Part shown: positions 1,782-39,544 of the stretch, piece after piece
Layout of the letters: every line of letters begins with the position of its first letter
How positions within the stretch are numbered: the first letter of the stretch is position 1
Virus record (IMG/VR): IMGVR_UViG_3300033994_001756
Span: 64,001 to 128,000 of that record
DNA length: 64,000 bases
Source: a virus
Direction: 5' to 3' (one strand)
Notes under the pieces: model-generated
Seen by the model: only the letters and a program-made list of their open reading frames with translations
What the model was told of the DNA's origin: nothing
Database searches by the model: none
Made by a program: the position numbers and the translations under genes

Positions 1782-2172
1782 ATTTTATGGAATAATTAAA
1801 TTAATTGACGGAGCAGAGTTAGTTGGTAATGTAGTTGTATGTGAAGAGGAAGATGGATTTGTTATAGAAAATCCATTTGAAATAACTGTAGAACAAATAT
1901 CAACTCCTGCTGGAGAGATGTACAAAGTTGATATGAGACCCTGGATTAAGTTCTCCAAAGAAGATATATTTTTTATTGAAAAGAATAAAGTATTTACTGT
2001 AGGAGAAGCAGATAATAAAATATTAATTTTGTATCGTAGTACTTTAAAGAAATATCTAAATCAAGATAACAACAATAAGGTATCACTAGATAAAGAACTA
2101 GGATTCAAGAATAAGATTGAAGAAGCAAGGAAGCTTCTAGAAAAATCATTTAAACTGAATATAGACTCTTAA
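1774..2172 (+). CDS. conserved cyanophage hypothetical protein
   Basis: 132-aa ORF with SD AGGAAGGA, in the usual slot between uvsW and g55. Confidence 0.75.
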   Translation: MTEFYGIIKLIDGAELVGNVVVCEEEDGFVIENPFEITVEQISTPAGEMYKVDMRPWIKFSKEDIFFIEKNKVFTVGEADNKILILYRSTLKKYLNQDNNNKVSLDKELGFKNKIEEARKLLEKSFKLNIDS

Positions 2173-2198
2173 AGAACTCTAAGTACTTAAAGTAAAGT

Positions 2199-2246
2199 TC
2201 TGAACCCTGACAGAGTTATTATACACACTTTCAGCAGTCTTGTCAA
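2199..2246 (-). promoter_or_regulatory. sigma70-type promoter on minus strand plus conserved leader (second copy at 31232-31279)
   Basis: TTGACA-17-TATAAT on minus strand; 27 nt identical to 31253-31279. Confidence 0.75.
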
Positions 2247-2263
2247 CCCCCCCCCCTCTCCTC

Positions 2264-2292
2264 TTGACAAGATGCTAGGAATGTGTTACGCT
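2264..2292 (+). promoter_or_regulatory. sigma70-type early promoter for g55
   Basis: TTGACA-17-TACGCT. Confidence 0.6.
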
Positions 2293-2318
2293 TAGTACAC
2301 TTGAAATAAAAACCTTGA

Positions 2319-2789
2319 ATGAAGAAAAAAGAACATTACGTAAATAACAAAGATTTTCTTGATGCTTTGATGGTTTACCGAAAGGAAGTTAAACTATCTA
2401 AAGAAGAAGGTAGAGACAAACCAAAGGTCCCAAACTATATTGGTGAATGCTTTTTAAAGATTGCTACTCACCTATCATATCGACCTAACTTTGTTAATTA
2501 CATGTTCAAGGATGATATGATTTGTGATGGCATTGAAAACTGCCTTCAGTATATTGATAACTTTGATCCAGAAAAGTCTACTAATCCTTTTGCATACTTC
2601 ACTCAGATTATCTACTTTGCATTCCTTCGTCGTATTCAAAAAGAAAAGAAGCAATTAGAAATTAAAACTAAACTTCTAGAACGATCTGGGTTTGATGAAG
2701 TATTTGCTGCAGATAGCAGTATCATGGGATATAATATGTCAGACATGAATAGCATTAAGGAAAACTTGGAGTATCGCAACAACCGATGA
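2319..2789 (+). CDS. g55: gp55 late-transcription sigma factor
   Basis: HYVNNKDF...YIGECFLKIATHLSYRPNF...NPFAYFTQIIYFAFLRRIQKEK. Confidence 0.95.
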   Translation: MKKKEHYVNNKDFLDALMVYRKEVKLSKEEGRDKPKVPNYIGECFLKIATHLSYRPNFVNYMFKDDMICDGIENCLQYIDNFDPEKSTNPFAYFTQIIYFAFLRRIQKEKKQLEIKTKLLERSGFDEVFAADSSIMGYNMSDMNSIKENLEYRNNR

Positions 2790-3835
2790 ATAGTGCCATT
2801 ATTACTGATCAACATCTTGACGGAAGAAAAGGATCTCAGGCATTCTGGGACTTCTTTCTAAAGTTCTACAATGAAGTATTTTTCCCCACGCTAGAAAAGA
2901 ATAATATCAAAATTCTTTTTGATCTTGGAGATACATTTGATAACAGAAAACAAATAGATTTTCTTGCATGGGATAGGATCAAGAAAAACTATTATGATCG
3001 ACTTCAGGAGATGGGTGTTCAAATTCATATGATTGTGGGTAACCACACTGCATACTATAAGAACACTAACAGAGTAAATACTCCAACTCTTCTTCTTGAT
3101 TGCTATGATAATATTACAATTTATGATGAAATTTGTGATATTGATGTTTTAGGAAACACCATTACAATGATTCCCTGGATTAACTCTGAGAATCAATTCA
3201 AAGTGATGAATCACCTAGAGAATACAAAATCAGAAGTATTGATGGGTCATTTGGAAATCAATGGATTTGAAGCTCACCCAGGACATATGTTTGAAGGTGG
3301 ATTAGACAGAGACATCTTTTCTAAATTTAAACGAGTTTATTCTGGGCATTTTCATCACAAATCAAGAAGTGATAACATCTATTATCTTGGCAATCCATAT
3401 GAAATGACATGGAGTGATTACAATGAAGAACGTGGGTTCCATCTTTATGATTTAGATTCCAGGAAACTTGAATTCATTCGTAATCCATTTAGAATGTTCA
3501 AGAAGTTTTATTATGATGATGCGAAGAATGATTATACCAAAGCAGATCTATCAGAATATGCCGATAGCTACGTTAAAGTTATCGTAGAAAATAAAAATGA
3601 CTTATATACCTTCGATAAAGTAATTGAGAAATTCTATACTATTGGAGTTCATGATCTAAAAATTATTGAAGATACTCAAGTATTTTCTGATCAAGATGAT
3701 CAAGAAGTTACTGAACATGAAGATACCCTAACCACTTTGCAGAGATATATAGAAGATATGAAAAATAATTATGATAAATCTCAATTGAAATCTATCATAA
3801 AATCTATTTACCTGGAAGCTTCTGAAATTCAGTAA
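2786..3835 (+). CDS. g47: gp47 recombination nuclease (Mre11/SbcD-like)
   Basis: TDQH, DLGDTFD, GNH and SGHFH phosphoesterase motifs. Confidence 0.95.
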   Translation: MNSAIITDQHLDGRKGSQAFWDFFLKFYNEVFFPTLEKNNIKILFDLGDTFDNRKQIDFLAWDRIKKNYYDRLQEMGVQIHMIVGNHTAYYKNTNRVNTPTLLLDCYDNITIYDEICDIDVLGNTITMIPWINSENQFKVMNHLENTKSEVLMGHLEINGFEAHPGHMFEGGLDRDIFSKFKRVYSGHFHHKSRSDNIYYLGNPYEMTWSDYNEERGFHLYDLDSRKLEFIRNPFRMFKKFYYDDAKNDYTKADLSEYADSYVKVIVENKNDLYTFDKVIEKFYTIGVHDLKIIEDTQVFSDQDDQEVTEHEDTLTTLQRYIEDMKNNYDKSQLKSIIKSIYLEASEIQ

Positions 3836-34779: not shown

Positions 34780-34828
34780 AATCAACACCCCTCAAGCCTA
34801 TCGACGATGCTCAAACAGAGGGGTCACT

Positions 34829-35236: not shown

Positions 35237-35308
35237 CCTCTGTTAGTCTATTGGTAAGGACAGGCAGACAATGCACTTGGAAACTGGGTTCGATTCCCAG
35301 CCAGAGGT
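35237..35308 (+). ncRNA. tRNA-like RNA without a canonical anticodon arm
   Basis: CCTCTG/CAGAGG acceptor, D-arm GTCT..GGAC, T-arm CTGGG-TTCGATT-CCCAG; anticodon region only GCA-GACAA-TGC. Confidence 0.7.
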
Positions 35309-35311
35309 ACT

Positions 35312-35530
35312 AAGAGCCCTAGACTGATAAACTAGAATGCTGTAGTAAAGGGTGCAACAAGGAACGTTGTATTAAACAAAGGATCCCCTCGGCCACATCG
35401 TAGATTTTATCGTAGGTGGACATTCTTGCCCTTAAAAATCGTAGGTGCCAAAACCTCTCGCTGGTCTAGTATTCTGTGGCTGGATGAAGTAAAGAGGGAT
35501 AACATAGGCAAAGTTATTCCCACCTACCAC
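35312..35530 (+). ncRNA. candidate structured ncRNA
   Basis: No ORF in track; multiple stems including GTAGGTG/CACCTAC, CCTCT/AGAGG, GATAAC/GTTATT. Confidence 0.5.
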
Positions 35531-35535
35531 AATTT

Positions 35536-35865
35536 TTATCTATGATACATAGATAAGTCAGAGTGAATTTCACGATGACAATTAGCACAGACAAGAATGC
35601 ATTTTTTTGCTTCCTCTCTTTGCTTTGCTAAAGATGCGGTGGAACCAATAATTCCACCTTCTTTAGCATCTGGGTCTACATGATGAAACTCTAGTGCTGC
35701 CGTGCATTTGTTGTATCCACACATACAGCATTTTCCTCCAGCTTCTTCTTTAATTAAAGATACATTTTTTCTTCTAGTTGCAGATACTCTTTCTGTCATT
35801 TTTTTAGCCCAGTTAGGATTTTTTGCTTTTCTATCAGCATAAGTTCTAGTTTCTTTTTTATTCAT
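35536..35865 (-). mobile_element. free-standing HNH homing endonuclease gene
   Basis: CCMCGY...LEFHHVDP...CILVCANCHREIH; inverted in tRNA cluster; own late promoter. Confidence 0.85.
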
Positions 35866-35902
35866 GTTGGTATAACTTTTTAAATTAATACCAACTATTT
35901 AT

Positions 35903-36020
35903 TCCCCTGTAGCTCAATGGCAGAGCAATCGGCTGTGGAAAAGAAGGTTCCTTTAGTTCTGGTTCGATTCCAGTTTTTTCCTTAACCGATGGGTTATAGG
36001 TTCAAGTCCTATCGGGGGAG
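35903..36020 (+). tRNA. tRNA-Asn(GTT) interrupted by a 46-nt insert (35937-35982) in the anticodon loop
   Basis: TCCCCTG/CGGGGGA acceptor, D and T arms intact; ATCGG-CTGT[insert]TAA-CCGAT; removing the insert gives a 72-nt tRNA. Confidence 0.88.
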
Positions 36021-36054
36021 TTACCGATAAATATCAGTATCGGTGGATACAGTT

Positions 36055-36315
36055 ATGAAATACAAAATTTCCTCAAACTATTGTTACTACAACAATGAAA
36101 TTGTGGAAATGTATTTCATCAACAATGTACCTTTTACTTTTGAAGAGATTCCTCAAATCATGCAGGATGACCCTTACATTCAAATAGATGCATCAAATAA
36201 TCAGGAATATGCTCCAGAAGATTTATATCGTACTTCATTTTATTTGATTGATGAAGAATGTCATCCTTGTTTATTTCCAGTTGATCTAGAAAATCCTGAA
36301 GATATGCCTGAGTAG
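36055..36315 (+). CDS. conserved cyanophage hypothetical protein
   Basis: MYFINNVPFTFEE...YLIDEECHP; stop codon lies inside tRNA-Thr. Confidence 0.75.
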   Translation: MKYKISSNYCYYNNEIVEMYFINNVPFTFEEIPQIMQDDPYIQIDASNNQEYAPEDLYRTSFYLIDEECHPCLFPVDLENPEDMPE

Positions 36316-37591: not shown

Positions 37592-37736
37592 CTTAAAAAT
37601 TACCCTGGTGGAGTCAACATGACCCAAATAGTCCTCGTCGGATTGGACAGTAAATATGCCGACTGGTGCGGATGAGGAGTGCTTACTCCCGCCTGGTTTC
37701 TTGCCTCCAGTCAAAGGGCAAGTGGCGAGCCTGCAA
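37585..37736 (+). ncRNA. manA-like structured RNA
   Basis: GC-rich stems GACTT/GAGTC, CGCC/GGCG, CTTGCCT/GGGCAAG with CTGG/CCAG pseudoknot; resembles the cyanophage manA motif from memory. Confidence 0.6.
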
Positions 37737-39506: not shown

Positions 39507-39544
39507 ATTAAATAAATACAGGAGGTTCAATACCTCCTTTTTTT

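Follow-up and report, generated by a model that had tools for sequence, protein, structure and literature searches.

A tRNA-shaped insert in the anticodon loop of a cyanophage tRNA-Asn gene suggests an intron removed by tRNA end-processing enzymes

Results

A tRNA-Asn gene split by a 46-nt insert

In a freshwater phage related to Synechococcus T4-like phages, the tRNA-Asn(GUU) gene was found to be divided in its anticodon loop by 46 nt that resemble the acceptor/T-arm half of a tRNA. The insert ends exactly at the sites where tRNA-trimming enzymes would cut, which suggests a splicing route in which trimming is followed by resealing. On balance, we favour the reading that the insert is a protein-dependent tRNA intron, which mimics the acceptor/T-arm half and would be excised by RNase P and RNase Z before a phage ligase reseals the flanks.

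The window, i.e. the whole stretch of 64,000 nt that was analysed, corresponds to positions 64,001 to 128,000 of the IMG/VR record IMGVR_UViG_3300033994_001756, a complete virus of 172,253 bp with terminal repeats and a G+C content of 36.7%. The stretch was present in many lake and freshwater metagenomes, in runs from many studies. Positions 35903 to 36020 on the plus strand hold the whole tRNA-Asn body, the anticodon loop of which reads CUGU, 46 nt and UAA (Table 1). The outer tRNA has a 7-bp acceptor stem, a D-arm, an anticodon stem (AUCGG/CCGAU), a variable loop, a T-arm and a discriminator G, and RNAfold of the 118 nt recovered this outer cloverleaf. An earlier note, made from the letters alone, had described this arrangement, a tRNA-Asn split between CTGT and TAA by a tRNA-shaped insert at 35937-35982, and the present analysis bore it out. 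Neither ARAGORN at its default settings nor Rfam made a call for the split gene, and ARAGORN with introns allowed forced a canonical intron at 37/38 and miscalled the gene as tRNA-His. The split gene is the only tRNA-Asn gene in the phage genome, and CCA is encoded by none of the phage's tRNA genes.

Table 1 Features of the split tRNA-Asn gene and its neighbour (window coordinates)
Feature	Position	Strand	Remarks
Free-standing HNH endonuclease gene, 109 aa	35536..35865	-	Divergent, 37 nt upstream of the split tRNA; phrog_2255
5' exon of tRNA-Asn(GUU)	35903..35936	+	Acceptor 5' strand, D-arm, anticodon-stem 5' strand, loop C32-U35 (CTGT)
46-nt tRNA-shaped insert	35937..35982	+	Equally 35936-35981 (one-T slide); missing from L084-L087
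Inner acceptor 5' strand GGAAAAG	35937..35943	+	G at +1, U35 at -1; partner 35975-35981
Inner T-arm UCUGG-UUCGAUU-CCAGU	35958..35974	+	Four pairs and U.U; equivalents of G53-C61, U54, C56 and A58
Inner acceptor 3' strand UUUUUCC	35975..35981	+	Pairs with GGAAAAG
Unpaired U at the discriminator (N73) position, final insert base	35982..35982	+	13 nt past the T-loop
3' exon of tRNA-Asn	35983..36020	+	U36-A38, anticodon-stem 3' strand, variable loop, T-arm, acceptor 3' strand, discriminator G; starts TAA, no encoded CCA

Other elements were noted around the gene. ARAGORN reported a 'tRNA-His(atg)' at 35237-35308 (+), between the upstream ORF and the HNH gene, with a good acceptor stem and T-arm (CTGGG-TTCGATT-CCCAG) and an unconvincing anticodon stem; the Rfam tRNA model gave no match, the element was not in the intron-less relative L086, and it may represent a decayed tRNA or a mere look-alike. 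Two further elements scored above the Rfam gathering threshold, namely an abiF RNA motif directly upstream of tRNA-Gly (34788-34824 (+), 48.6 bits) and a wcaG RNA (37629-37736 (+), 68.9 bits). Contigs from two lake metagenomes (X5 and X12) joined 36010 to 36312 with 30 other letters between, and these variants are without the 90-aa ORF (phrog_4134) that is sited between tRNA-Asn and tRNA-Thr. A T-arm-like hairpin at 39521-39537 was rejected as a second nested tRNA and assigned to an intrinsic terminator after a high-light-inducible gene. The scan for promoters and terminators gave nothing informative.

Boundaries and authenticity of the insert

Four IMG/VR contigs of a related cyanophage (L084-L087) carried the same 72 exon bases as the window, with the loop CTGTTAA and without the insert, and ARAGORN called this allele tRNA-Asn(gtt); the genes around tRNA-Asn were only ca. 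70-79% identical to those of the window. Since the intron-less exons are identical, the insert is exactly 46 nt between U35 and U36, or the same length placed one T to the left, a slide of the junction that the earlier note had stated correctly. The split gene of a second phage (L006) was identical to that of the window. Moreover, a contig from an independent lake metagenome (X5) spanned 35408-36210 with zero differences from the window, and an assembly chimera, which the earlier note had named as a possible source of the insert, was therefore ruled out. The identical insert in L006, this contig and the recurrence of the stretch in runs from many studies leave a negligible chance that the insert is an assembly or sequencing artefact.

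Fold and layout of the insert

In the RNAfold prediction, the insert formed an 8-bp helix directly stacked on the 4-bp stem of the UUCGAUU loop, giving 12 stacked pairs and one unpaired 3' U. In the tRNA register, the inner acceptor stem consists of six Watson-Crick pairs and one G.U, and the inner T-stem of four pairs and a U.U mismatch. The miniature tRNA drawn in the earlier note was thus recovered in its acceptor, T-arm and discriminator, but not in its AAG-GTTC-CTT hairpin, which was absent from the minimum-energy fold; an equivalent AAG-GAAA-CUU hairpin was predicted in phage phiM7. The inner helix is rich in A/U and of low stability (-8.8 kcal/mol), and the folding energy did not differ significantly from that of shuffles (z = -0.25 for the insert and -1.17 for the whole gene), whereas the layout was very rare by chance: of 2,000,000 shuffled versions of the insert, one combined a terminal 7-bp helix with a T-arm in register. 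The case for tRNA-likeness therefore rests on layout and not on energy.

The features of a minihelix layout for RNase P and RNase Z were all found, i.e. ca. 12 stacked pairs, G53-C61, U54, A58, G+1, U-1 and a single discriminator. The bases after the 3' end of the insert are UAA, and there is no CCA at positions 74-76. The inner element has neither a D-arm nor an anticodon arm and is not a four-arm cloverleaf; compared with canonical tRNA (RF00005), it gave no Rfam match at E up to 1, and ARAGORN called no gene. As had been argued in the earlier note, the insert is not a group I intron, being 46 nt long, ending in U rather than G and having no Rfam match, and it does not form an archaeal bulge-helix-bulge, its two junctions facing each other directly at the foot of a single helix. 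No match to the splicing endonuclease family PF01974 was found in the phage genome, and to our knowledge bacteria do not have the archaeal/eukaryal tRNA splicing endonuclease.

A family of tRNA-like inserts between U35 and U36

Related inserts were gathered by a pattern scan of IMG/VR and by BLAST of cultured phages, and many unrelated phages proved to carry one between U35 and U36 of tRNA-Asn. Complete tRNAs occupy the site in L027 (Asp-GUC) and L042 (Thr-UGU), and in both the ARAGORN span runs from insert base 1 to the terminal CCA. Minis of 43-71 nt occurred in three Sinorhizobium phages, namely phiM12 and phiM7, where they measure 46 nt, and phiM19, as well as in L003, in the L005 group of over 15 contigs, and in L018, L034/L060/L068 and L043. 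When 13 tRNA-like insert types were aligned in one tRNA register, the inner pairs 3-70, 4-69, 5-68, 51-63 and 52-62 were each represented by three to five pair types, while G53-C61 was invariant (13 of 13) and U54, C56 and A58 were kept throughout. Since the pairs vary compensatorily while these bases are kept, the shape of the insert is under selection, and the selected shape is specifically the one read by tRNA end-processing enzymes. The earlier note had proposed a search for covarying inserts in related phage tRNA-Asn genes, and in this search the acceptor/T-arm pairing proved to be maintained through compensatory changes.

The outer cloverleaves were intact in all 13 insert types, which come from diverged phages, and the outer stems within the L005 insert family differed by compensatory changes. 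The integrity of the exons and the compensatory outer-stem differences argue that the outer tRNA is used, although recombination with intron-less alleles could be an alternative source of the outer-stem pattern.

A scan of IMG/VR for the discriminator-ended type, using a pattern from the T-loop to the exon, returned only L006, L027 and chance matches in coding sequences. Metagenomes were scanned for the 5' exon with a base other than T after it; no additional tRNA-Asn insert came up, and the matches consisted of tRNA-Tyr-like genes, of which some have unrelated anticodon-loop inserts, and an unrelated sequence. No cultured carriers of the L005, L027 and L034 insert types were matched in the phage collection.

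Inserts of other kinds were also observed. In L015, L050 and L069, group I-like introns of 183-200 nt with a terminal G occupy the same site, and the U35/U36 position of phage tRNA-Asn is thus a hotspot for unrelated intron types. A different class, found at this site in L049 (2284-2433) and L072, is a 78-nt insert with no T-loop or tRNA shape, which starts with CTACAGACAG and ends with CATCTGC; in L049, it adjoins a PD-(D/E)XK-like gene. In L077 (5876-6068), the tRNA-Asn gene carries a 121-nt insert composed of a 29-nt leader and, reaching to the 3' junction, a complete type-II tRNA (Ser-AGA by ARAGORN), and a weak GIY-YIG gene lies upstream; this 5' leader is at odds with a simple RNase P model. 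tRNA-Tyr-like genes, the anticodon loops of which are enlarged by ca. 12-50 nt of non-tRNA-like sequence, were found in IMG/VR (L047, L048, L054 and L064) and in metagenomes (L101, L103 and L105).

Agreement of the insert ends with the ends of tRNA genes

The 5' end of every tRNA-like insert corresponds to tRNA position +1 directly after U35, and the base is G except in L060/L068, where it is A. Where CCA is encoded in the neighbouring tRNA genes (phiM12, L003, L005/L010/L031, L018, L034/L060/L068, L027 and L042), the 3' junction falls 16 nt beyond the T-loop, at position 76; in the window phage and L006, whose tRNA genes are without CCA, it falls 13 nt beyond the T-loop, at position 73, the discriminator. 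The offset between the two classes is exactly the length of CCA. The end of the insert agreed with the ends of the phage's own tRNA genes in 12 of the 13 insert types, and a U follows the 3' cut position. The exception is L043, where the tRNA genes are CCA-less, yet the insert has a 4-nt tail; since two further intact tRNA-Asn genes lie beside the split copy in L043, that copy may be dispensable. Because the position-73 form rests on one lineage (the window phage and L006), this 73/76 end rule, which is new as far as the literature was searched, is suggestive and not proven.

In the minis of the CCA-encoding phages, positions 74-76 are purine-rich and not CCA (GAG, GAU, AGU and others), the 4-nt tail can pair with C32-U35, and a G1.A72 mismatch that closes the helix is conserved. 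In L060 and L068, this mismatch is swapped to A1.G72 relative to L034, which suggests selection for a non-canonical pair at the 5' junction in minis of this type. No known endonuclease would be expected to cut precisely after position 76 in minis without CCA, and this counts against the route proposed here as a mechanism for the whole family. A bulge-helix-bulge or kink-turn at the junction of these minis was rejected, its geometry being unfit and different from that of the window; RNase III was rejected since its cuts would be offset by 3-4 bp, as against the 2-nt stagger that this enzyme leaves.

The neighbouring HNH gene and mobility

The HNH gene beside the split tRNA was assigned to phrog_2255 with E = 4.1e-23, and its match to the Pfam HNH family was weak. 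From the HNH gene to the split tRNA (35500-36000), the window and L006 were 95-100% identical, as against 57-92% in the flanking 100-nt bins, the two phages being otherwise diverged. This high-identity tract is the pattern that recent homing or co-conversion would leave, and an adjacent endonuclease gene together with a local high-identity tract between diverged genomes is what characterises a collaborative homing cassette. The intron-less allele of L084-L087 is without the HNH gene. S-WAM2 and S-H38 have HNH homologues that reach into the 5' end of tRNA-Asn genes with different anticodon stems and no intron, and nuclease-like genes lie beside other carriers, namely HNH (phiM12 and L034), weak GIY-YIG (L077) and PD-(D/E)XK (L049). 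The insert and the HNH gene bear the mobility signature of a DNA cassette whose parts would travel together. A link between the two had been suggested in the earlier note, and it drew circumstantial support from the adjacency, the shared tract and the homologues abutting tRNA-Asn; the insert probably protects the tRNA-Asn gene from the adjacent nuclease.

RNA ligases and related enzymes of the phage

Phage RNA ligase genes had been named in the earlier note as a check on the idea of splicing, and two were found in the genome, i.e. a full-length T4 Rnl1-type ligase (PF09511, 98.8 bits; T4_Rnl1_C, 26.9 bits; phrog_562, 1.6e-73) and a second RNA ligase (phrog_968, 3.2e-85). In genome coordinates, the two genes lie at 1869-3098 and 164534-165595, respectively. 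The Rnl1 gene is followed by a 166-aa polynucleotide-kinase-like gene that overlaps its end, and no 3'-phosphatase domain was seen beside the kinase. No RtcB, splicing endonuclease (EndA) or CCA-adding enzyme was found in the genome of the window phage.

Each of the four complete phage lineages with minis (the window phage, phiM12/M7, G001 and G006) had Rnl1. It was missing in S-WAM2 and S-H38, where the HNH gene occurs with an intron-less tRNA-Asn, and in two complete phages with full nested tRNAs, of which G008 has another ligase and G007 a weak match only. Since Rnl1 is a general repair enzyme common in phages without introns, e.g. T4, its presence is not specific. The closest Rnl1 was that of cyanophage B23 (55% identity), in which no tRNA-Asn of the window's type was found. 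Synechococcus phage B23 carries a 110-nt 'tRNA-Undet' (L090:1009-1118; MN695335.1 220408-220517) with a tRNA-Asn-like D-arm and T-arm, where ca. 40 nt of hairpin-forming, non-tRNA-like sequence replaces the anticodon loop. B23 does not help the correlation with Rnl1, because it has no such tRNA-Asn and its insert is not tRNA-like.

Discussion

Proposed splicing route

Bacterial RNase P, like RNase Z, accepts minihelices composed of an acceptor stem and a T-arm and leaves 3'-OH and 5'-phosphate ends, and T4 Rnl1 seals anticodon-loop nicks that have such ends. Based on these properties, the removal of the insert was hypothesised to proceed as described below. Host RNase P would cut between 35936 and 35937, 5' of the inner G+1 and after U35, leaving a 5' exon with a 3'-OH, and host RNase Z would cut between 35982 and 35983, after the inner discriminator U and before U36, leaving a 3' exon with a 5'-phosphate. 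The outer cloverleaf would keep the halves together as a tRNA nicked in the anticodon loop, which is the natural type of substrate of T4 RNA ligase 1, and the phage Rnl1-type or second RNA ligase would then reseal the loop to CUGUUAA, freeing the 46-nt mini-tRNA. We infer both cleavages and the ligation from established enzyme properties, and we infer the role in immunity as well. Part of the splicing interpretation of the earlier note was supported by the insert family, the positions of the ends and the ligase gene, and the action of RNase P, RNase Z and the ligase stays a prediction. The evasion of host anticodon nucleases, another role raised in that note, found no support.

Some features fit this route less well. 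The inner leader and trailer extend just 4 nt before the outer anticodon stem is reached, and this may hinder both enzymes. The kinase beside Rnl1 suggests the repair of breaks with 5'-OH ends, a type that neither RNase P nor RNase Z produces, and it would be idle in the proposed route.

As to transcripts, the contig of the only RNA run, a freshwater metatranscriptome (X13), covered the HNH region up to 35909, short of the tRNA; it has no bearing on splicing, and no spliced RNA, free intron or cleavage product was seen. A 46-nt 'joint' from 35935 to 35982 in run X20 was rejected as a sign of splicing, its shorter side consisting of 23 letters at 90% likeness; because the adjoining loose ends have a different tRNA-Asn T-arm, it was read as the intron-less tRNA-Asn of other organisms, and the run is probably DNA and not RNA.

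Alternative explanations

The insert might instead be an unspliced insertion scar that disrupts the target of the HNH nuclease and is kept as an immunity determinant or as selfish DNA, the transcript perhaps being cut by RNase P and RNase Z but its halves never rejoined while the host tRNA-Asn serves; we regard this as unlikely, though deserving serious attention. Consistent with it, the sole RNA contig stops before the tRNA and no spliced RNA was seen, the split copy in L043 is accompanied by two intact tRNA-Asn genes, and Rnl1 is missing from some carriers. In addition, since the cassette is recent and mobile, as its identity to L006 indicates, the intact exons could reflect mere youth. Against the scar stand the 13 distinct insert types in diverged phages with all outer cloverleaves intact, and the compensatory outer-stem differences among intron-bearing alleles. 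A mere disruptor of a target site would have no need of a tRNA-like shape or of exact ends at +1 and 73/76, yet these are kept, and the split gene is the only tRNA-Asn of the window phage.

A true intron could also be removed by some other phage or host endonuclease that leaves 5'-OH and cyclic-phosphate ends, with healing by the kinase and subsequent sealing. The kinase-like gene overlapping the end of the Rnl1 gene fits such a scheme, and the pairing of the tail with C32-U35 and the swap between G1.A72 and A1.G72 hint at a junction structure read by a factor other than RNase Z. On the other hand, there is no candidate nuclease, EndA and RtcB not having been found in the phage, and the kinase has no visible 3'-phosphatase domain beside it. 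The junction spacing, moreover, differs between the window phage and the phages of the CCA type, which disfavours a single enzyme of fixed geometry and fits the rules of tRNA ends. We therefore consider this explanation rather improbable. It is very improbable that the insert is a small self-cleaving or self-splicing ribozyme: group I introns do occur at the same site in L015, L050 and L069, but the insert is 46 nt long, ends in U rather than G and matches no Rfam family at E up to 1, and the family has no conserved core besides its tRNA features. Excision by the tRNA end-processing enzymes followed by ligation is the reading that we prefer.

Implications

More generally, and with doubt and confidence about evenly balanced, we propose a third phage tRNA-splicing route. 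A tRNA-mimicking intron would be released by the universal tRNA end-processing enzymes, with RNase P cutting at its 5' junction, the machinery for 3' ends cutting at the other, and Rnl1 or Rnl2 acting as the ligase, and the 3' boundary would be tuned to how the host finishes 3' ends (73 in CCA-less cyanobacterial systems and 76 in CCA-encoding ones). The inserts would derive from whole tRNA genes that were captured at breaks made by homing endonucleases and then shrank to a minimal recognition module.

Self-splicing is the only route of tRNA intron removal known in bacteria and their viruses. If the proposed route is true, the removal of a 46-nt non-catalytic intron by RNase P, RNase Z and an RNA ligase would be a new pathway made up of housekeeping and repair enzymes, phage Rnl1 would gain a constitutive job beyond countering anticodon nucleases, and a selfish insertion would have been rendered harmless by imitating a tRNA. 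The example in the window is useful since it is small, has a perfectly matched intron-less allele and belongs to an ordinary-sized T4-like cyanophage. Its discriminator-ended form leads to the prediction that the 3' boundary depends on whether or not the tRNA genes of the same phage encode CCA, and the cultured Sinorhizobium phages that carry the same kind of insert (phiM12, phiM7 and phiM19) make the question of splicing testable at the bench.

Comparison with known systems

mascRNA is a tRNA-like RNA released from MALAT1 by RNase P and RNase Z, and the proposed route resembles this in that a tRNA-shaped element would be cut out of a longer transcript by two end-processing enzymes. The mascRNA type is eukaryotic and its flanks are not rejoined, whereas the flanks here are the halves of another tRNA. 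Group I introns of anticodon loops occupy the same kind of host gene, and those in L015, L050 and L069 the very same site; they are 183-200 nt or longer with a catalytic core and a terminal G, in contrast to the window insert with its 46 nt, no core and a terminal U.

In collaborative homing, known from cyanophage F-CphI with the psbA intron and from Aeh1 MobE with the nrdA intron, a free-standing nuclease gene lies beside a gene with an ORF-less intron. The window locus is alike in this, in the absence of the intron from related phages and in the high-identity tract centred on the nuclease-intron pair. The F-CphI and MobE introns are self-splicing group I introns in protein-coding genes, whereas the insert here is 46 nt of non-catalytic tRNA-like sequence in a tRNA gene, and the HNH nuclease is a putative partner.

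In T4, the PrrC anticodon nuclease is countered by tRNA repair with Pnkp and Rnl1. The final step proposed here is likewise the sealing of an anticodon-loop nick by Rnl1, and the window phage genome has an Rnl1 with its C-terminal domain and a neighbouring kinase. Unlike in T4, the proposed break would be constitutive and made by tRNA-maturation enzymes rather than by a host defence nuclease, and the route would need no end healing and would remove 46 nt.

The nearest relatives are the introns of Lak megaphages. The earlier note had treated the insert as possibly a new type of intron, but tRNA-containing introns in phage tRNAs had already been noted in 2019, when 'enigmatic' tRNA introns, i.e. 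anticodon-loop inserts predicted to be or to resemble tRNA, were described in Lak megaphages (Devoto et al. 2019, PMC6784885); alleles with and without these inserts exist, and the insert is highly conserved (PMC6784885). A 2026 survey of jumbo phages repeats the remark on tRNA introns (PMC13037316). As in the Lak phages, the window insert is tRNA-like, it splits the anticodon loop of an otherwise intact phage cloverleaf, and alleles with it (the window and L006) and without it (L084-L087) occur among related phages. Neither the Lak nor the jumbo-phage paper offers a mechanism or an account of the minimal acceptor/T-arm form, and full-text literature searches turned up no proposal or test of a mechanism, no description of that form and no such insert in a T4-like cyanophage. 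The Lak and jumbo-phage carriers exceed 200 kb and many of them use alternative genetic codes, whereas the carrier here is a 172-kb T4-like freshwater cyanophage with standard tRNAs, and the window insert, in contrast to those of Lak phages, ends at the discriminator and not at CCA and is linked to an HNH gene. The insert is a variant of a barely described kind, whose minimal form and discriminator end are new as far as the literature was searched.
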